This document shows, piece by piece, positions 5,256 to 58,697 of a DNA stretch of 64,000 nt. A program made the position numbers and the translations under genes. Below the pieces are notes generated by a model. It had not been told where the DNA came from. It did not search any database and was given only the letters and a program-made list of their open reading frames with translations. Numbering within the stretch: the first letter of the stretch is position 1; every line of letters starts with the position of its first letter. Location of the stretch: assembly GCA_964564895.1 (NCBI GenBank), contig CAZMCB010000001.1:19689-83688 (forward strand), written 5' to 3'. The stretch is from an uncultured Pseudomonadales bacterium (GTDB lineage Bacteria; Patescibacteriota; Microgenomatia; UBA1400; MFAQ01).

Positions 5256-5426
5256 TATTTTTATTATACCTATACTTAAATAGTATACTTATAAAGCTTG
5301 TCGAGTTTGTTTTATTGATAATGCATATATATGTATAAAATTAAATATTGTGTTTTTATGATTTCAATTAAAAAGTGGACCATATCATTTCTTGAATCTA
5401 TTTACACGAAGGTTTTTAAGCGCGAA
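5256..5426. promoter_or_regulatory. Divergent promoter region between the epimerase operon (-) and the flippase operon (+)
   Basis: A 170-nt, very AT-rich spacer with several TATAAT/TATACT-like hexamers between divergently transcribed genes. Exact -35/-10 boxes are not assignable. Confidence 0.3.
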
Positions 5427-6662
5427 ATGAGTGATAATGTGCGTACGTTTCTTAAAAATTTGTCTTTGTCAATTTTTGGAGGTGGAATCGCATCGGCTGC
5501 AATGATGGTAATAAATATTGGGGCAGGTAGAATGTTGGGTCCAAGTGGGTATGGAGAATATGGACTAGTTTTAGCAATCAGTCAAATTTTTATGGTTCCA
5601 ATAGTGCTTGGGCTTGATGTATCAGGAGTAAGGGCAATATCTTCCGTTGAATCAAGAAGGGAGAAATCATTAAATATTTCCAGTGTATTTCACTTTGTTG
5701 GTTTATCGTCTATAGTATTTATTTTTTTATATTTAGTGTTCAATAATTTTGTTTCAAAAATACTCAACATTGACAGAACAATTTTATTAATGTCGGCCAT
5801 ATATGCAATTGTTACTTCTTTTAAGGTAATTTCAGATAGTTTTGTACGAGCACTTTTACTATTTAAAACTCAGTTGTTTGCACGACTTGTGGAAATGATT
5901 ACAATCATCTTTCTTTTTTCGTTGTTCTTTTTAGTAATCGAAAAACAAAATTATACGAATTATTTAATTTCAATATTGGGAGGTTCAATTGTGTTTTGTA
6001 TTATATTGCTAGCTAAGTACTTACCATACCTAACTAAGTTTGATTTTAGTTACTTAAAAAAACAACTCTCATATAGTTCGGTTTTGTTGTTTGGTTCAAT
6101 CTTAGGAGCAATATATAATGTTCTAGAAAAAATGGTAATAGCTAGGTACTTGAGTGTTTTTGACTTAGGGATATATCTTGCATATTTCACCGCATCCTTA
6201 GGAATGATTGCACAATTAACACAAATGTTTGTTAATGTATTTTTTCCTTCAATAACAAAATCATCTAACAGATCTGTTTATTTAAAAGTTGAGAAAATTT
6301 TTCTTTCTCTATTTTTTCCGACATTATTATTAATATCTTGTCTGATATTTATAATAATCAATTTTTTTGGCAAAACATATGGAATGAATTATTATTATGT
6401 ATTCGGTTTTGGATTATTGGCTACAATGCAAATGCTGTTAGGAATAAATTACTATATTTTTGCTTCTTCCTCAAAAAAACTATATTTTACATATGTTAAA
6501 TATGTTGGTGCAATAAATTTTCTCCAGTTACTTGCATACGGAGCTATGATTTATTTTGATATCGTTTCAATTGATTTAATAATAGTAGTGTCAATGGTAA
6601 ATTCAATCGCAAACATTACATTTCAAAGGAAACTGATAATGAATAAGGATATTATGATATAA
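5427..6662 (+). CDS. Wzx-like oligosaccharide flippase (MOP superfamily, polysaccharide biosynthesis protein)
   Basis: The N-terminus NLSLSIFGGGIASAAMMVINIGAGRMLGPSGYGEYGLV matches the Wzx N-terminal pattern (...ARxLGPxxxGxY). About 12 TM helices. Start taken at M33 (5427); the ORF track extends to 5331. Confidence 0.65.
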   Translation: MSDNVRTFLKNLSLSIFGGGIASAAMMVINIGAGRMLGPSGYGEYGLVLAISQIFMVPIVLGLDVSGVRAISSVESRREKSLNISSVFHFVGLSSIVFIFLYLVFNNFVSKILNIDRTILLMSAIYAIVTSFKVISDSFVRALLLFKTQLFARLVEMITIIFLFSLFFLVIEKQNYTNYLISILGGSIVFCIILLAKYLPYLTKFDFSYLKKQLSYSSVLLFGSILGAIYNVLEKMVIARYLSVFDLGIYLAYFTASLGMIAQLTQMFVNVFFPSITKSSNRSVYLKVEKIFLSLFFPTLLLISCLIFIIINFFGKTYGMNYYYVFGFGLLATMQMLLGINYYIFASSSKKLYFTYVKYVGAINFLQLLAYGAMIYFDIVSIDLIIVVSMVNSIANITFQRKLIMNKDIMI

Positions 6663-49783: not shown

Positions 49784-50701
49784 CTATTTAGTCAGCTTGC
49801 GGCGGAGCTTGAGGAGGAAGCGTTTGGCTTTGGAGGGCTGGTCTTGGATGAGGACGGTGAGATACCAGTACTGAAGCTCTTTGAATTTTTCTAGGAAAAG
49901 CTTTTGCCAGATGGGAGTGAGGTAGCCGGGGCGTTTTGGTTCGTGACCTTCGGCCTGCCAGACCTTGAGATAGACAAGCATGATCGAAAACATCTGCAAG
50001 AAAGCCAAGACTAGTCCGTGCAAGCCATCCTTGTAGCCATCGCCAGCAAAGAAGCGACTGATAAATTCACTGATTGGTTTGCCAATAAGATCCTTAACGT
50101 CGAATTTGTAGCCAGAGTTTTGCAACTCTTTGGCTTGCTGAGTGGAGTAGCGAAGAGCTCTCTCAAAATACTCGTCTATAGAGTTGTAATGAAAATGCTC
50201 GATGGCTAAAGATTCCTCAGCTTCTAAATTGATACCGGTTCCTGAAGTGATTGGAATTGAGTGAATTTCATTTTGCCATTCTACGGCTCCTTTTTTGAAA
50301 AATCTGATGTTGTAATCTGGCCACCAACGAGAATGCTCGGTCCATTGACCAAAGATAATATTTTTTCTTGGTACCCTTACAAAATCTACTTTATCTTCTT
50401 CGGTAATTTCGATAAGTTTTTTGGCTAGAGACTTGGGAATTCGCTCGTCGGCGTCAAGTATTAGTACCCAGTTACCAACGGCTTTACTGATAGCAAAGTT
50501 TCTTGCTGGCTCGACGTAACCAACCATTTTATGGTCGTAGATTTTATCAGTGTATTTTTTGGCGATATTGACGGTGTCATCAGCAGATTCCATATCAACA
50601 ACGATTATTTCATCAGCGAACTGGAGTGACTCGAGACAAGCAGCAATATTTTTTTCTTCGTTTCTGGTGTTTATTACTGCTGAGATATTTATTTTGGACA
50701 T
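49784..50701 (-). CDS. GT2 family glycosyltransferase
   Basis: ISAVINTRNEEKNIAACLESL...IIVVDMESADDT and LDADE are GT-A motifs. Confidence 0.75.
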   Translation of the reverse strand: MSKINISAVINTRNEEKNIAACLESLQFADEIIVVDMESADDTVNIAKKYTDKIYDHKMVGYVEPARNFAISKAVGNWVLILDADERIPKSLAKKLIEITEEDKVDFVRVPRKNIIFGQWTEHSRWWPDYNIRFFKKGAVEWQNEIHSIPITSGTGINLEAEESLAIEHFHYNSIDEYFERALRYSTQQAKELQNSGYKFDVKDLIGKPISEFISRFFAGDGYKDGLHGLVLAFLQMFSIMLVYLKVWQAEGHEPKRPGYLTPIWQKLFLEKFKELQYWYLTVLIQDQPSKAKRFLLKLRRKLTK

Positions 50702-50702
50702 A

Positions 50703-53700
50703 TTAAAGAGTTTTGTAGATATTAATTTCGGCTGATTCGAAAATTCTGACCATAGGCATAGAACACGGACTGAGTCTCATTAGATTGAGAGGTGTCTCGT
50801 ATATATATTTTATTTCATTTTTTGCAAGAAAGTTTTTTGCCCAGTCTAGATCAGTCGTGTTATAGAAACGCTGGATATCTTTTGCCCTTTGCTGATAGTT
50901 GTAACCAGTGATATCAAGGTTTATGGTATCGGAAAGGAACTCTGGCTGGCCAGAGAGAGCAGAGATGTAAGCTGTGGAGTTGTAAGCATATAGTGGTTTG
51001 GGGGGAAGAATATGACCAGCTAATTGATTGTCAAAGTATGGGGCCAAGACAACTCCTTTTGGTTGAGTCTTTAAAAATTCTAGAGCACGAAGCTCGGTGT
51101 AACTCACCCTTGAGGATGGCTTGAAACTAGTGTGTTCTCCGATTGAACCAATGGTGGTTAAAAGCGTACAAAGAACTAACAATACAATCATCAATATTTT
51201 GACAAAACGAGAATGTATTTTATTTATATAAAACATTACTCCCCTGCCGGCAAAGAGACCAAAAACAAATAACGAGTAATACATAAACTGAATACTGTTC
51301 CAAGGATTGTACTTTTGGGTAAGAATCATAGGGATTAAAATGCCAACTAGAGAGATAGCTATAAGTATTCTCTGAGAGAGGAAAGAGTTTTTGCCTTTTA
51401 TTATTTGCCAAACTCCAAAGAGACGAGTGCCAATATTGCCAATGAGGAAAACTATTACTCCGAGAAGATTAACTATTAATAATTTTATGGTTGATCCCGT
51501 GGCTTCATAAGCTTGCCAAGCATTGGCGACCTTTTCAAAGTTTAATCTGTCGCTTGAAGCAAACATGCTCTTGATAAACCAGAAGGGAGAAAATTCAAAT
51601 GGGAAACCAGCAGATGAGCTAAAAGGTAACGTAATGAGAACCCCTAACAATCCGATTAATATAAGGAACAACCATTGACCAGTTAACAAAAGACCGGCAG
51701 AGAGAAGGATGAATGCATAAACCTTTGTCTGCGCCAGAAGACCTCCAAAAAACACAATTCCAGCAAACTTTAGAGTGCTTTTCTTCTCAAAGTATTTTTC
51801 AAGAAGGAAAAGAGTGACAAGCAAAAAGAGAACTGAGAGAGCATACGGTGGATTAAGGAAAATGGAAAAAGATTGATTTGCCCAGAAGGCAGATTCACCA
51901 CCAAAAATGCTATTTCCGGAAAGAAGTGATGGAAGGAATCCGAGAGATCCCGCAAGGTAGACAAATAATAAGGAAATTATTATTTCTATCTCTTTGAACT
52001 TCCATAGTCTTAGGAGCTTGATGATGAAAAAAGTAAGGAGAATGGCTATCACTAGAGGCAAAAAGAAAAAGAATATTTGAGATGATGGAATATGTGTAAA
52101 TCGAACCAAAAGACCGGCAAAATAATCAAAAACAAAATGATAATTCCCCAACTTCTCCCCTGCCAACTGAGGGTGAGATAAAGATAGAGGATTTTCGGCT
52201 ATCTTTTCGATGAGTGAGAGGTGAAAGACTGCATCATGAGAGTTTGAACCCCAGTAACCCAGTCCAAAGGGGTAAAGCTTGCTATCTTTGTAGACTGCAA
52301 TTAAGGGAATTAGTGAAATTAGTGATCCAATTCCAAAAGTTTTGTTTATCAAAAAACAAAAAATTATGACAAGTAAAACAATTGTAATTTGAAAAATCGG
52401 TTTTGAAAATAGAGATGTAAAAGGAGTCTTTGGGGCAACAGTCCAAGCCACCTCGTTTTTCTTTGTTGTTTCTTTAATGTTTTTAAAGTCTGTGTGCGGT
52501 ACAGCAATATTTGAGAAAGTTATCGTTTTTGGAGTAAGGGCTATTTTTTTGTCTCCATTTACTAAGGCGATATTCCAAATATCACTTTTTTCATCATAAA
52601 GAGTCTCGTACTTTTCTAAATCAATGTTTAAAGCGAGAGCGGTTTCTGGATTTTTGACCGAGTCAATCTCGGCTGGAATTTCGGCGGAAATTCCGTAGTA
52701 TTGATTTGGAGTGGCAATATAGTCTTCGTAAATTTCACGATTGTATACTCTGAAGTCAATTATCTTTGTTTGGCCATTTTGAGCCTTTAGGCCTAAGCGA
52801 TAAAAGGGGGTTTGGTACCATATCACTTCACCAGGTTCGTTACTTGTGGGGTCTGCGGTGCGGTAAAAATACACTGGGCTGCTTTCCGGATATAGAGATT
52901 TCATCCAGTCACCAAAATATTCTAAGCTTACAAAACGAATATTATATTTTTCCTGATTGGCTTTTATGGTGGAGTAAATATGTCTTATTTCTGGAAGATA
53001 ATCTCCGGTAAGAACATCATTTTCTAGACCGATATTGATATATGTAAATTTATTTAGATCTTTTTGAGTGTAAAGCGCGAAAACATGATCAAAAAAACTC
53101 GATGATTGGCCAACCATTTGATACTCATTTGGCTGTATCGAATAAAGGGAAGTCCTTTCGGGATTAATTATATTGAAAAGATCTCGTTGGGCGAAACGCA
53201 CAACTGGAATATTGACTCGATTTTTGAAACTCTCGGCTGGAATAAGTGAGTTATTTTTGTCTGGGAAATATGGACTTCCGATATAGCCTCCCCAAAGTCT
53301 TGTACCTCTCATCTGATATTGATCATCAAGAATCATAGCAGTCTGAACAGAGTATTTAGTTTTTAGATAATCGAGAGAAAAACTATCAAGATGCCAAGCC
53401 CCGACAGTGCGAGGGAAGAAACCAAAACGCTCCTTAAACGAGCTCATAAAAGCATCAATGATAAGAAGTCTTTGATCTGGTGTGTATCCTGAAAGGAAGG
53501 TTTCATTAATACCGCCTCCTGAATAAATATTCACCTTTTGGGTTAGCTTGGGAGTAACTTCGAGCAAGCCCCCTAGTGAAACTAACTTATCTGGACCAAT
53601 TAGTTCGCTGAAAAAAGCAGAAATTGTGGCGTCATTTACAGCATCAAAACGAAGTAGCCATGTGGATGGTAAACCAGAATGAGAGGACTCTTCATATAAT

Positions 53701-53864
53701 TTAATTGGAATATCTAAAGGTTTTTGAGTTTTACTTAGCCATCCTTCGGATCCCCTGACAGGATTAGTAAGGGTGACGAAAGTAGGACCGGTATATGCCA
53801 GAGACTTAATTGGAAAAATAAAAAAGAAAAATATTGATAGAAATAAAAATAGCTTCTTAATCAT
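50703..53864 (-). CDS. Giant fusion protein: signal peptide, ~480-aa extracytoplasmic domain (possible carbohydrate-active/esterase-like fold), then a ~570-aa polytopic GT-C-like membrane domain
   Basis: 1053 aa. The N-terminus MIKKLFLFLSIFFFFIFPIKSLA is a signal peptide. A hydrophilic stretch runs to about residue 490, followed by about 14 TM helices and a ~150-aa C-terminal tail. Confidence 0.5.
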   Translation of the reverse strand: MIKKLFLFLSIFFFFIFPIKSLAYTGPTFVTLTNPVRGSEGWLSKTQKPLDIPIKLYEESSHSGLPSTWLLRFDAVNDATISAFFSELIGPDKLVSLGGLLEVTPKLTQKVNIYSGGGINETFLSGYTPDQRLLIIDAFMSSFKERFGFFPRTVGAWHLDSFSLDYLKTKYSVQTAMILDDQYQMRGTRLWGGYIGSPYFPDKNNSLIPAESFKNRVNIPVVRFAQRDLFNIINPERTSLYSIQPNEYQMVGQSSSFFDHVFALYTQKDLNKFTYINIGLENDVLTGDYLPEIRHIYSTIKANQEKYNIRFVSLEYFGDWMKSLYPESSPVYFYRTADPTSNEPGEVIWYQTPFYRLGLKAQNGQTKIIDFRVYNREIYEDYIATPNQYYGISAEIPAEIDSVKNPETALALNIDLEKYETLYDEKSDIWNIALVNGDKKIALTPKTITFSNIAVPHTDFKNIKETTKKNEVAWTVAPKTPFTSLFSKPIFQITIVLLVIIFCFLINKTFGIGSLISLIPLIAVYKDSKLYPFGLGYWGSNSHDAVFHLSLIEKIAENPLSLSHPQLAGEKLGNYHFVFDYFAGLLVRFTHIPSSQIFFFFLPLVIAILLTFFIIKLLRLWKFKEIEIIISLLFVYLAGSLGFLPSLLSGNSIFGGESAFWANQSFSIFLNPPYALSVLFLLVTLFLLEKYFEKKSTLKFAGIVFFGGLLAQTKVYAFILLSAGLLLTGQWLFLILIGLLGVLITLPFSSSAGFPFEFSPFWFIKSMFASSDRLNFEKVANAWQAYEATGSTIKLLIVNLLGVIVFLIGNIGTRLFGVWQIIKGKNSFLSQRILIAISLVGILIPMILTQKYNPWNSIQFMYYSLFVFGLFAGRGVMFYINKIHSRFVKILMIVLLVLCTLLTTIGSIGEHTSFKPSSRVSYTELRALEFLKTQPKGVVLAPYFDNQLAGHILPPKPLYAYNSTAYISALSGQPEFLSDTINLDITGYNYQQRAKDIQRFYNTTDLDWAKNFLAKNEIKYIYETPLNLMRLSPCSMPMVRIFESAEINIYKTL

Positions 53865-55368
53865 GTTTTAGTCGAAAGTAACTGAGAGTATCTTTGATAA
53901 AAGATTTTCCCTCAACTAGAATAATTGTTCCAAAATAGACACTAGCTGAAATTAAACCAATAATTATTAGTCGAGTGAAAGAGTTTCCGTATTGAATCGT
54001 AAATACTAAAAATGAAGACATCAAAAATGTTGCTGCCAATGGAGTTTTTAGAATGTTTAATAAATTGAAGTGAACATATTTTCTTGCCAAAAGAATGGTC
54101 ACGAAAGAAGAAGTGGCAATGATAGCGACTGCATATGAAACTCCAAGGTACCCAAATTTAAGAGATAAGAATGGCATGGTAAGCCATGTAAGACCGGTCC
54201 ACATAAGCATTAGTTTGAAGGTGGACTTGATGTGACCTGTTGCGTTTAAAAGGTTGGTGAGACTAGTGGAAATACTCGCCCAAGCGGAGTTGTATAGATA
54301 AATATACAAAGGAATTAAAGCGGGAAGCCATTTGGCATATTTAGGAATCAGGTTTACTAGAGGTAAGGCAAAAAATCCCATACCAACCAAAATTGGGAAG
54401 GCAGCCAGACACATGTATTTCAGGCTGACCTCTACGGCTCTTGCGAGTCTATCTTTATCATGTTGGAGTCTTGCGAAAGTTGGGAAACTAACTTTTGTGA
54501 GGTTGTCCATGACAATTCTTAATGGGAGACCAGCCCAACGACTTGCCCAGCCGATATAACCCAGACCTGTTGTTCCGATTATCCTTGTAAGAATAATCGT
54601 CATGCCGTCGTCTTTTAGTACAGCAAGGAATGTATTGGCTTGATATGGAAGACCAAAACGAAGGAGAGATTTTAATGATTCTTTGTAGATACCAATTACT
54701 GGCTTCCAAGGATAGACAATATACATCGTGATAAGTCCAACGAAACCTCTAGCTAGGACGGCAAAAGAAAAGGAGGATACGCCGAAACCTTTCCAAGCAA
54801 AATATACGGCTACTACATTGAAAGCTAAGGTTTCAAGTATCTGAGGAAGAATTAGTTTATTAAACTTGATTTCTCTCTCGAGCATGATTGAAGGAATTGT
54901 TTTGAGCGAACTAAGGAAAAGTGAAATACCCATGGCATAGAGAAGATACATACCTGACTGGTCAATGTTGTATTGGGTACGGATTAAAGATCTTAGTAAA
55001 AACAAAACCAAAAGAAGTAAAAATACTAAAATTTGCTGAATGGTGAAAGTAGTTGCCAAGTCTTTTTTGGTGATGGCTTCCTTTTTTTGAATAAGGGCTG
55101 CAGCAAGACCAATATCTGAGAAATATGCCAAGAAATTTACAACTGAAGAAACTAGATAAAATATTCCGTATATATTTGGATCAAGAAAGATTGTGAGGGC
55201 GAGCGTTGCAAGAAAAGTTATTATCTGAACAATAAAGGTTCTAGATATTAGAGCCAAAACACCAGACACGGATCGACGTTTTATTTCGTTTACCTCCATA
55301 GAGACTCCTGGTTCAGCGACGTTTTCCACGAATTTGAAGTTTTGATTGTTTGATAATAAGGAAGACAA
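53857..55368 (-). CDS. Wzx-like flippase / polysaccharide biosynthesis protein (MOP superfamily)
   Basis: RRSVSGVLALISRTFIVQIITFLATLALTIFLDPNIYGIFYLVSSVVNFLAYFSDIGLAAALIQKK is a canonical Wzx N-terminal block. About 12-14 TM helices. The alternative start at 55299 (MEVNEIKRR) avoids overlap with the upstream gene. Confidence 0.65.
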   Translation of the reverse strand: MSSLLSNNQNFKFVENVAEPGVSMEVNEIKRRSVSGVLALISRTFIVQIITFLATLALTIFLDPNIYGIFYLVSSVVNFLAYFSDIGLAAALIQKKEAITKKDLATTFTIQQILVFLLLLVLFLLRSLIRTQYNIDQSGMYLLYAMGISLFLSSLKTIPSIMLEREIKFNKLILPQILETLAFNVVAVYFAWKGFGVSSFSFAVLARGFVGLITMYIVYPWKPVIGIYKESLKSLLRFGLPYQANTFLAVLKDDGMTIILTRIIGTTGLGYIGWASRWAGLPLRIVMDNLTKVSFPTFARLQHDKDRLARAVEVSLKYMCLAAFPILVGMGFFALPLVNLIPKYAKWLPALIPLYIYLYNSAWASISTSLTNLLNATGHIKSTFKLMLMWTGLTWLTMPFLSLKFGYLGVSYAVAIIATSSFVTILLARKYVHFNLLNILKTPLAATFLMSSFLVFTIQYGNSFTRLIIIGLISASVYFGTIILVEGKSFIKDTLSYFRLKHD

Positions 55369-57019
55369 TAGAAATCCAAGCTACTAATGAAATTATATTG
55401 GATATTCGACGAACGGGAGTGTCTAGGTATTTAATGGTAAGGAAGTGGTCCCCTGCTGGGACAAAGACTTTCATAGCACCGTACTGATCGAGAATTACGT
55501 CAACTGGCTTGTTGTCTATAGAAATATCCCAGCCCGGATAATAGAAGACATTTATATTGATGAAGCTATCGATGTCTGAGCTTATGCTTGCTTTGGTGTT
55601 GAAAGGATTGGAATCAGTGATGTTTATTTGTGCAGCTTGAAGAATCGATGTCACTCTGGCGCTGGGAACATCTGTGGGTCTTGTTGCATTAACTGGCAGG
55701 GGCATGTAGTTTTCGGTGTAATCAAGATATTCCGAGGAGACTTTTTCACCTGATTGAAGGACCTGATTAGGTAAGTATCTTCTTAAGAAATAATTATCGG
55801 GAGTGGCGGTAATTTCTCCTGGGCGAAAGTAGGCGACGGTAAGAGAAAATGAGGCAATTATTATTATCGAAGAAAAAATTGCTAAAAGTTTTCCGGAAAT
55901 ATTTTTTATGAAAAATACAAAGAGAACGGCTGAGAGAATAGTGGTAATAGAAAGTAATCTCCAAGGGAACTGTATGGCGTTGGTAAAGGGAAAAATATTC
56001 CAGATAAATGAGGACCTGATATTCATCATAAAAATAACAAAGAAGGTGGCGAGGATTGTGGCTATCAAGTATCCTTTTTCTGCTTTTTTATTTCTTACAG
56101 ACTTAATGATTAATAAAACAATAGCTGCAAGAAGTACGACCAAATTTACTATGCCAATTTGGAAAGACATATCATCATATGGTCCCCAGTTTGAAGCTCC
56201 ATAACCCCATGGTGAGTATATTAGTTGCCAGATAAAGGGGAAATGATCGTAAAGATTGAAAGGAAGAACTTCTTTGATAAAACCTTTTTCAGCAAAAACT
56301 GGAATCAAATAATATGAGGTGAGGAGAAAGGATGAAAAAAGACCAGCAAAAACACTTAATATAAATTTGTAATTTCTACGAAGAAGCTCGACCAAGAAAT
56401 AAATGCCAACTAATATTGGTAGCCCAAAAGCGGTAGACGGTTGATGGGAAAGGATAAGTAAAGAAACTGAAATGCCTAAAAGTAGGATATTTTTTAGATT
56501 TTGTTTTTCTTTTAGCCTAGCTAGACTGTATAAAATCCAAGGGAAAATGGCTAAAGCAAAGGACTCTCCGATTGTGCCTCTGACATAAACATCAATCGCT
56601 CTATAAGGGGTATAGGTGTAAAGAACGGCAGCGGCTAAAGAGGCAAAAGAAGTGGTGTATTTTTTGGCAAAAAGATACATACCAAATGCGCCAATGAAAA
56701 GAGATAAGGCTAAAGTAAGAGTGTAAGAATAAAAAAGTGAAAAGCCGACCTTATTAAATAGGTATCCTATGTAATATGGAAGCTGATAATTGAACTCTGG
56801 ATATGGAGAGCCATAAGTAAAATGAACATCCAAAGCCCAACGTGGAGGAAACTGGCCCAGATCAATGGTTTGGATATACTGATGGAGATTTACTATCTGA
56901 GATTCATCGTGGAAAGTAAAACTAAAAGGAGTAACTAGCTTGATGGCAGCCGGAATAATTGCCAGAATCAAAAGAATGGGAATAATTTTGGATAGTTTAT
57001 CGAGTATTTTTTTTATCAT
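55313..57019 (-). CDS. Polytopic membrane protein, HDD...PxRW...GYGxPxFNYY...PYY family (paralog A), putative GT-C
   Basis: FTFHDESQIVNL...FPPRWALDVHFTYGSPYPEFNYQLPYYIGYLFN. 568 aa with a C-terminal soluble domain. Confidence 0.5.
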   Translation of the reverse strand: MIKKILDKLSKIIPILLILAIIPAAIKLVTPFSFTFHDESQIVNLHQYIQTIDLGQFPPRWALDVHFTYGSPYPEFNYQLPYYIGYLFNKVGFSLFYSYTLTLALSLFIGAFGMYLFAKKYTTSFASLAAAVLYTYTPYRAIDVYVRGTIGESFALAIFPWILYSLARLKEKQNLKNILLLGISVSLLILSHQPSTAFGLPILVGIYFLVELLRRNYKFILSVFAGLFSSFLLTSYYLIPVFAEKGFIKEVLPFNLYDHFPFIWQLIYSPWGYGASNWGPYDDMSFQIGIVNLVVLLAAIVLLIIKSVRNKKAEKGYLIATILATFFVIFMMNIRSSFIWNIFPFTNAIQFPWRLLSITTILSAVLFVFFIKNISGKLLAIFSSIIIIASFSLTVAYFRPGEITATPDNYFLRRYLPNQVLQSGEKVSSEYLDYTENYMPLPVNATRPTDVPSARVTSILQAAQINITDSNPFNTKASISSDIDSFININVFYYPGWDISIDNKPVDVILDQYGAMKVFVPAGDHFLTIKYLDTPVRRISNIISLVAWISIVFLIIKQSKLQIRGKRR

Positions 57020-58697
57020 GTGGAGCTACGGCAATAACTAAACTCAATAATAACGAAATAAAAGTAATGATGTTTGCTACTTCTCTCGTGCGGGTATTTT
57101 CAAAGTACCCTTGGACTAGTGTAATACCTTTATCAAAAGTAAGTGTGATTTCTCCATGGTCTTCCCCAATCTGATATACCGTGGGTGTAACACTGCTGTT
57201 TAAATACACTTTCCAGTCTGGAAAGGCTGAGATGGGGAATGAAACCGTTGCCTGACCAAAAGAAACATCTACGTCTGCTGAAAAATAAGCTGATCTTTTC
57301 TGGAAATTTTTTACTTCTGCTAATCCGGAAAGTACTACTGGATTGCTTGGAGCTATCTTTTCGGGAACGGAGACCATAGATAAAGGACGATAATCAAAGA
57401 AGGCAGATTTTTGGCTTTGTTCGAACACTTTTCCTGATAGATAAGTTTCGTCTGTAGCACTTGGACTAGACTTATCAAACTTGAAGAAACGAAAATTTAG
57501 AAATAACAAAGCAAAAACGAGAAGTAGGGTGAGTAGTTTTTGAGTTTTTTGTCCGAATGAGCTAATAAAAATGGCCAAAACTACAGCGGAGCTAAGCGCA
57601 ACTAAGCCTAAAAATCTCCAAGGGAACTGGACGAAAGATAGAGGTGCAATTAGCTCCCAAATAGCGATAGATCTTATGGTTGTGAGGAAAATAGCAAAAA
57701 GGGCAAAACAAAAAAATGTAATTAAGAGAATTTTGGAGGTTTTTGAAAGTGACTTTCTTTTGATAAATAAAAATATCGGTGTAACGACTAAAGCTAACGT
57801 CTGAACTATACCAACAGCAAAAGAGATCTTGTCGTTTGGACCAAACTCACTGGCACGATATCCCCAACTTTGTTTGATAAACAGTTGAGATAGAGTAGCA
57901 AAATGAGCTCGAAAATCAAAATAACCACTAGTAAGGAATCCGGTATCTACCAAGTTATTTTCGAAAATTACTGGTAGTAAGAAAAATGAGGCAATACCTA
58001 AACCAAGCACAGCAGAACTAAAAAGTAGTGAAAAAGATTTGATTTTTTGTTTGTTTATAAAAATCATGATGATGGCAAATACGGCGATGAAGGGGGAAGA
58101 AATTAAAGTGGTGATGTTGTGAGTACTAAGGAAAAGACCTAGGATTAGCGAGAGAAAAGCAAGATTAATTTTGGTTTTGTTGATAATTAATTTTGTGATT
58201 CCGAATAGAACTAACGGCAATAGTGCCAGAGCGAAATTTTCGGCGAGAGCTCCCCTTACAAAAATTTCAAGAGCACGAAAAGGAACCAAAATATAGGCAA
58301 CCCCTCCAATGAAGCTTGGCAGAATTGGAACAAACTGTGAAAGGAATATAAACATGGCGATTCCAGCAAGAGCTATCGAAATAAACATGACTATTTTGAC
58401 TGAATCAATTAGAGAAAAACCAAGATTGTTAAAAATTGCACCGACGTAATATGGAGTGGCAGAGTAATAGTTAAACATGGGTTGACCGTATCCATAACTC
58501 ATGTCTGGGGACCAACGACAAGGAATTTGACCATCATTTAGGCAACGTTTCATTTCGTAAAGTCGCATAACTTGTAAGTCGTCGTGCATAGAGAAAAAGC
58601 CTGGTTTGAAAATATTCCAAGAAACTAAAACGGAAATTAATAGCAGGCCGATGATGGCAATTAACTTTTTATTCATGTTTTCTTTTGAAGATGGCAT
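56997..58697 (-). CDS. Polytopic membrane protein, same family (paralog B)
   Basis: FFSMHDDLQVMRLYEMKRCLNDGQIPCRWSPDMSYGYGQPMFNYYSATPYYVGAIFN. Confidence 0.5.
   Translation of the reverse strand: MPSSKENMNKKLIAIIGLLLISVLVSWNIFKPGFFSMHDDLQVMRLYEMKRCLNDGQIPCRWSPDMSYGYGQPMFNYYSATPYYVGAIFNNLGFSLIDSVKIVMFISIALAGIAMFIFLSQFVPILPSFIGGVAYILVPFRALEIFVRGALAENFALALLPLVLFGITKLIINKTKINLAFLSLILGLFLSTHNITTLISSPFIAVFAIIMIFINKQKIKSFSLLFSSAVLGLGIASFFLLPVIFENNLVDTGFLTSGYFDFRAHFATLSQLFIKQSWGYRASEFGPNDKISFAVGIVQTLALVVTPIFLFIKRKSLSKTSKILLITFFCFALFAIFLTTIRSIAIWELIAPLSFVQFPWRFLGLVALSSAVVLAIFISSFGQKTQKLLTLLLVFALLFLNFRFFKFDKSSPSATDETYLSGKVFEQSQKSAFFDYRPLSMVSVPEKIAPSNPVVLSGLAEVKNFQKRSAYFSADVDVSFGQATVSFPISAFPDWKVYLNSSVTPTVYQIGEDHGEITLTFDKGITLVQGYFENTRTREVANIITFISLLLSLVIAVAPHDKKNTR

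Follow-up and report, generated by a model that had tools for sequence, protein, structure and literature searches.

Gene content and conservation of the locus

The DNA studied here is a stretch of 64,000 nucleotides (the window), and its longest open reading frame, correctly picked out as the largest gene in the original prediction, encodes a protein of 1053 amino acids in an uncultured Microgenomates (Patescibacteria/CPR) bacterium. The protein combines a secreted N-terminal part with a polytopic membrane part and a soluble C-terminal domain, and its gene is closely flanked by genes for a Wzx/MOP flippase and a GT2 glycosyltransferase (Table 1).

Table 1. Coordinates of the gene, the encoded domains and the two partner genes in the window
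Feature	Residues	Position	Strand	Basis or remark
Whole gene (1053 aa + stop codon)	1-1053	50703..53864	-	Single uninterrupted ORF, ATG start
Sec-type signal peptide (KK, hydrophobic core, SLA before Y)	1-23	53796..53864	-	Sequence and hydropathy; predicted cleavage site
N-domain barrel, (beta/alpha)7 glycoside hydrolase/deacetylase-superfamily fold, DUF3863-like	24-330	52875..53795	-	
N-domain beta-sandwich, DUF3864-like	331-480	52425..52874	-	All-beta over 332-476
Linker TM helix, leading the chain back to the cytoplasm	489-506	52347..52400	-	Hydropathy; model helix 12-29
GT-C (GT-C_A) core, about 11 TM	508-911	51132..52343	-	
Asp544 codon (residue in the first outer loop with a proposed catalytic or metal-binding role)	544	52233..52235	-	D in 76/76
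C-terminal outer alpha/beta domain, AglB core-unit-like	918-1053	50706..51113	-	
Partner Wzx/MOP flippase gene		53857..55368	-	Pfam Polysacc_synt_3, 5.6e-50; NCBIfam MOP and O-glycosylation flippase
Partner GT2 gene, 1-nt gap past the target stop		49784..50701	-	Pfam Glycos_transf_2, 5e-20

The stop codon of the flippase gene overlaps the ATG of the target gene (ATGATTAA; overlap of 8 nt). The best NCBIfam matches of the flippase are exporters and flippases of Und-PP-oligosaccharides. The GT2 protein has a single hydrophobic segment and no match to a family specific for GtrB or DPM1. In a sample of 80 species-representative loci the target gene directly follows a Wzx gene in 70 of 73 and is itself directly followed by a homolog of the GT2 gene in 62 of 77; this near-constant Wzx partner had been overlooked in the original prediction. 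This synteny persists down to 33% identity, and the Wzx/target/GT2 triad is conserved across the family with or without a fused N-domain. Elsewhere the window contains a second, shorter MOP flippase gene (5331-6662) and at least 15 genes of the GT-C type. An initiating phosphoglycosyltransferase was not recognised in the window, which counts against the function proposed below.

The existence of standalone versions of both halves in other genomes was the sole ground for asking whether a frameshift, read-through or assembly chimera had fused two genes. The frame is continuous, the NCBI database holds a protein 100% identical to the product, and independent Microgenomates assemblies from NCBI, JGI, ENA and Logan contain about 85 homologs of full length with identities of 38-89%, some of them seen on 14-22 contigs. 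Because the fusion is conserved in these homologs, the gene is not a chimera or a frameshift product. A dedicated linker helix, which makes the fused topology coherent, argues in the same direction, and the chance of an artefact is negligible. The product is one genuine multidomain protein at the outer face of the cytoplasmic membrane, and we are highly confident of the architecture and gene coupling described here.

As anticipated from motif reading, the protein has no named homolog: searches of Pfam and NCBIfam with the whole protein, with each half separately (E<=10) and with ten standalone or N-domain-only relatives returned no family, the sole exception being a weak GT87 match in relative P0160 (E 0.0017). 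The family is nevertheless large, since the profile of the membrane half matches 1667 clusters at 50% identity and the GTDB species representatives yielded 266 relatives.

Separate and fused forms of the two halves

The question of whether the halves also occur as separate genes has a clear answer. Among the 80 species loci 42 carry the fused gene and 38 a standalone membrane gene, and in two of the latter (L050 and L060) a separate N-domain gene lies between the Wzx and the GT-C gene. A neighbour-joining tree requires a minimum of five fusion/fission changes, or about four if an outlier resembling a mis-picked paralog is left out. One protein, P0124, may be a triple fusion of Wzx, N-domain and GT-C. 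Proteins consisting of the N-domain without the membrane core also exist; they retain a C-domain copy of their own, and in two of the five contexts examined their gene lies one gene past another MOP flippase. Since 38 of the 80 species lack the fused N-domain, the GT-C reaction does not depend on this domain. The repeated fusion and fission, together with the adjacency of both genes, lend plausibility to the original proposal of a coupling between glycan modification and transfer through the fusion.

The secreted N-terminal domain

The N-terminus (MIKKLFLFLSIFFFFIFPIKSLA followed by YTG) resembles a Sec signal peptide, as judged both by eye and from hydropathy, and the pattern is retained in the alignment consensus. 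Hydropathy agrees with the predicted order of a signal peptide and a hydrophilic domain, the latter extending over residues 24-488, with the remainder of the chain polytopic. The domain had also been described as rich in aromatic residues and glycine, but its contents (14.0% F+W+Y and 5.6% G) are close to the window means of 14.4% and 5.4%. Structure prediction, run on each half separately, yielded a carbohydrate-active barrel for the N-half and a GT-C core for the membrane half. The guess of a carbohydrate-active fold was thus borne out, in the form of a (beta/alpha)7 barrel of the glycoside hydrolase/deacetylase superfamily.

A related solved structure is PDB 3lm3 (BDI_3119 of Parabacteroides distasonis), which represents DUF3863/DUF3864 (PF12979/PF12980) and is annotated as 'putative glycoside hydrolase/deacetylase'. 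It shares with the N-domain profile similarity (E 4.5e-5 and 2.2e-8), the barrel and sandwich fold, D228, E281 and the PYFP..PAQ motifs. The structural alignment covers 372 residues, reaching beyond the barrel, and the HMM alignment also runs into the sandwich region. Sequence identity, in contrast, is 16%, and, unlike DUF3863, the N-domain is joined either to a membrane enzyme or to an AglB-like C-domain copy and is linked to Wzx. With hmmscan no match to PF12979 was obtained at E<=10 for the N-half of the target, P0054 or P0093; the DUF3863-type links consist of precomputed weak labels and of family-profile matches to the 3lm3 sequence. For this reason the N-domain is, by sequence comparison, a distant relative of DUF3863/DUF3864 and not a member by the Pfam gathering criterion. 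In word-limited sequence searches its subfamily was found in Patescibacteria only. Literature searches on DUF3863 and on 3LM3/BDI_3119 yielded nothing relevant.

The same (beta/alpha)7 superfamily contains the CE4 (NodB) deacetylases and family GH57, with structural match values of 19.5 for HP0310, 15.4 for ArnD and 16.6 for GH57 AmyC; hmmscan at E<=10 gave no match of the N-domain to CE4 or GH57 families. Alignment of 54 members, down to 28% identity, revealed seven invariant residues: D74, E102, T104, R132, D160, S163 and Y171. E281 is E or D in 53 of the 54 and hence not strictly invariant. None of the invariant residues is a histidine, and H158 is a histidine in only 33 members. Unlike the CE4 enzymes, the N-domain therefore has no Asp-His-His metal site, and a CE4-type metal-dependent deacetylase, characterised by the motifs TFDD, H(S/T)xxH and LxH, could be rejected. 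In the model the invariant acidic and arginine residues are located just past strands beta2, beta3, beta4 and beta7. GH57 enzymes have their Glu nucleophile after beta4 and their Asp acid/base after beta7; acidic residues of the modelled N-domain appear to follow the same two strands. Judged from these conservation patterns, the N-domain resembles a glycosidase or transglycosylase more than it does a metal-dependent deacetylase.

The absence of the CE4 metal triad, the variability of H158, the dispensability of the domain in 38 of 80 species and the existence of CE4-fold pseudoenzymes, one of which (BA3943) is among the structural matches, could also mean that the domain has no catalytic role. 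It would then be a pseudoenzyme or a module of the lectin type, whose sole task is to bind the glycan or an acceptor polymer and to hold it in place for the GT-C core. We consider this fairly unlikely. The seven strictly invariant residues, three of them acidic and one an arginine, cluster at the barrel strand ends, D228 and E281 are common to 3lm3, and the occurrence of a stand-alone secreted form beside other flippases suggests an autonomous activity. To judge from the sequence comparisons, the N-domain is rather probably catalytic.

The GT-C core and the C-terminal domain

The original prediction of about 14 transmembrane helices was right about the polytopic character of the second half, but the number is closer to 12, one in the linker and 11 in the core, as deduced from the secondary structure of the AF2 model together with the positive-inside rule. 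The linker helix is missing from many standalone homologs, which are about 540-600 residues long and start at profile position 24-33 or so; other standalone homologs have 60-100 extra N-terminal residues. In the homologs the linker helix is followed by a K/R-rich loop, and the K/R-rich loops of the protein are on the predicted cytoplasmic side. Contrary to the description of the C-terminal half as a membrane domain, the last 136 or so residues form a separate soluble alpha/beta domain, which had been missed.

The core has the GT-C_A polytopic fold of the PMT, ArnT, STT3, ALG and Aft enzymes. The membrane half as such has no Pfam, NCBIfam or PDB-sequence match, and phmmer and profile searches of PDB sequences with this half or with the C-domain found nothing. 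The resemblance to neighbouring GT-C genes that had been noted holds for the fold, but not for the sequence: hhalign against the product of 56997-58697 gave a probability of 0.9%, local HMMs built from neighbouring genes miss the target, and Pfam PTPS_related (PF10131) and PMT_2 (PF13231) are also absent. In view of this lack of sequence similarity, we rejected the idea that the gene is a paralog of its GT-C neighbours.

Comparison of the core in 76 members (24-37% identity) identified D544, N671, K714, Q850, N856 and Q859 as invariant. D544 is situated in the first outer loop (526-593), directly after TM1 and a hairpin, together with the conserved H548, Y575, H576 and D580. This position after TM1 corresponds to that of the catalytic Asp of GT-C enzymes, and D544 would have the same role. 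The second outer loop carries E657/W661, and further conserved residues of the core are Y716, D772/R773 and N810/R814. The C-terminal domain, which has the fold of the common core (CC) unit of oligosaccharyltransferases, conserves Y966, D979, R993, Y1020 and Y1022 and has no WWDXG.

Comparison with oligosaccharyltransferases and other GT-C enzymes

In Foldseek searches the top whole-chain matches were the oligosaccharyltransferases STT3, AglB and PglB (E 4e-8 to 1e-5), and the mycobacterial arabinofuranosyltransferase AftA aligned over the greatest length and with the lowest rmsd. The protein shares with the GT66 enzymes, especially with the short archaeal AglB-S, the succession of a GT-C membrane domain and an outer C-terminal alpha/beta domain, a first outer loop with an invariant Asp, a second one with an acidic residue, and a probable place of action downstream of a flippase. 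The family differs from them in lacking WWDXG, which lies in the C-terminal domain and contributes the Ser/Thr pocket, the diacidic DXD pair and DK/MI (motifs as defined in PMC3703281). It also differs in having 11 instead of 13 transmembrane helices in the core, and an additional secreted enzyme-like domain with a linker helix. Its overall architecture is that of an oligosaccharyltransferase minus the sequon-binding WWDXG motif.

A PglB or AglB ortholog, glycosylating N-X-S/T sequons, would agree with the Foldseek ranking and with the match of the C-domain to the AglB core unit. However, WW[DE] was found in none of the 76 diverse members, and the conserved acidic residues (D544, D580, E657 and D772) are single, with no conserved D-x-D pair among them. 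Pfam STT3 (PF02516) gave no match at E<=10, profiles A4, A5 and A6 found no oligosaccharyltransferase sequence in the PDB, and the count of core helices is that of neither PglB nor AglB. Owing to the absence of WWDXG and DXD a canonical N-oligosaccharyltransferase was rejected; we regard it as very improbable.

With AftA, ArnT, PMT and ALG12 the protein shares a genomic setting in which outer-face GT-C enzymes are numerous. It differs from these enzymes in having no match to Pfam PMT_2, GT87 or related families, in its MOP/Wzx partner flippase and in its C-domain resembling the core unit of oligosaccharyltransferases. Literature searches combining Patescibacteria with oligosaccharyltransferase, and GT-C with CPR, retrieved nothing relevant.

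Three-component systems for extracytoplasmic glycosylation are exemplified by GtrABC and CsbB-GtcA-YfhO. The triad of GT2, flippase and GT-C genes mirrors GtrABC and CsbB-GtcA-YfhO and is compatible with a single-sugar GT-C enzyme of the AftA, ArnT, PMT or GtrC type, which would use a polyprenyl-monophosphate sugar made by the downstream GT2 and extend a wall polymer or a flipped, lipid-linked glycan by one residue, the MOP flippase moving either donor or acceptor, as has been proposed in archaea for AglR with AglS. A single invariant Asp in place of diacidic DXD motifs fits such an enzyme, as does the abundance in the island of other GT-C enzymes, the expected users of such donors. Against it, the flippase belongs to the 12-TM-class MOP/Wzx proteins with Und-PP-oligosaccharide matches and is not of the GtrA type, the GT2 is not GtrB-like, the GT-C protein is of another, unnamed family, and the Foldseek ranking over the whole chain together with the AglB-like C-terminal unit favours the architecture of an oligosaccharyltransferase. 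On this evidence we hold single-sugar transfer to be unlikely, though deserving of serious consideration.

The near-constant pairing with Wzx, and the failure to recognise any member of the Wzy or O-antigen-ligase families in a window with two MOP flippases, could point to a functional substitute for Wzy, in which the GT-C core joins flipped repeat units and the N-domain sets the chain length or cleaves the product. Wzy is poorly detected by Pfam, and its apparent absence is therefore weak evidence; several polytopic ORFs that belong to no family remain in the window. Proteins of the Wzy/WaaL type are regarded as a different GT-C subclass. The target has no sequence-family or fold match to Wzy polymerase or WaaL ligase (PF04932), and all its structural matches are GT-C_A transferases. 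A polymerase function thus appears improbable.

Proposed function

The protein probably acts at the outer face on a substrate flipped by Wzx. Whether the GT-C core transfers the glycan en bloc, in the manner of an oligosaccharyltransferase or ligase, is less certain, and we put this forward tentatively, at somewhat less than even chances. Taking all observations together, we lean slightly towards an oligosaccharyltransferase-like GT-C enzyme that transfers the Wzx-flipped glycan and has a tethered N-domain for its processing. According to this proposal, cytoplasmic GT2 and GT4 enzymes would build a glycan linked to polyprenyl-(di)phosphate, which Wzx would flip. The adjacent Wzx suggests that the donor used by the GT-C core may be linked to polyprenyl phosphate, and the lipid phosphate could be bound by K714, R814 and the N/Q cluster. 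D544, assisted by E657, D580 and His residues and possibly acting via a metal, would then direct the flipped glycan onto an acceptor, which would be held by the C-terminal domain and would not be an N-X-S/T sequon. The N-domain, in which the invariant or nearly invariant acidic residues D74, E102, D160 and E281 would form a ring where the barrel strands end, may trim, cleave or otherwise process the glycan handled by the core.

CPR/Patescibacteria have small genomes that are dense in membrane glycosyltransferases, and the large family defined here has no Pfam or NCBIfam model. Its near-constant Wzx partner and its oligosaccharyltransferase architecture without a sequon-reading motif make it a concrete candidate for the enzyme with which Microgenomates bring their main flipped glycan to the cell surface. 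The fused, split and stand-alone forms of the DUF3863-like domain provide a testable context, the outer-face processing of Wzx-dependent glycans. The family would be of interest for glyco-engineering if its acceptor specificity proves new.

A bolder possibility, to which we assign a rather small probability, is that Microgenomates carry a lineage-specific machine for surface glycosylation, in which glycans pass from Wzx through the oligosaccharyltransferase-like GT-C enzyme to an acceptor other than a sequon, and in which the DUF3863-like domain with the AglB-like C-domain is a hitherto unrecognised, autonomous outer-face enzyme of Wzx-dependent pathways. If true, this would provide the first function for DUF3863 and a new class of oligosaccharyltransferase-like enzymes. 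Candidate acceptors for such a machine are an S-layer protein, a pilin, peptidoglycan or a lipid, and candidate roles of the enzyme composed of the DUF3863-like domain and the C-domain are those of a glycan-trimming or activating hydrolase, a transglycosylase/ligase or a Wzy substitute.

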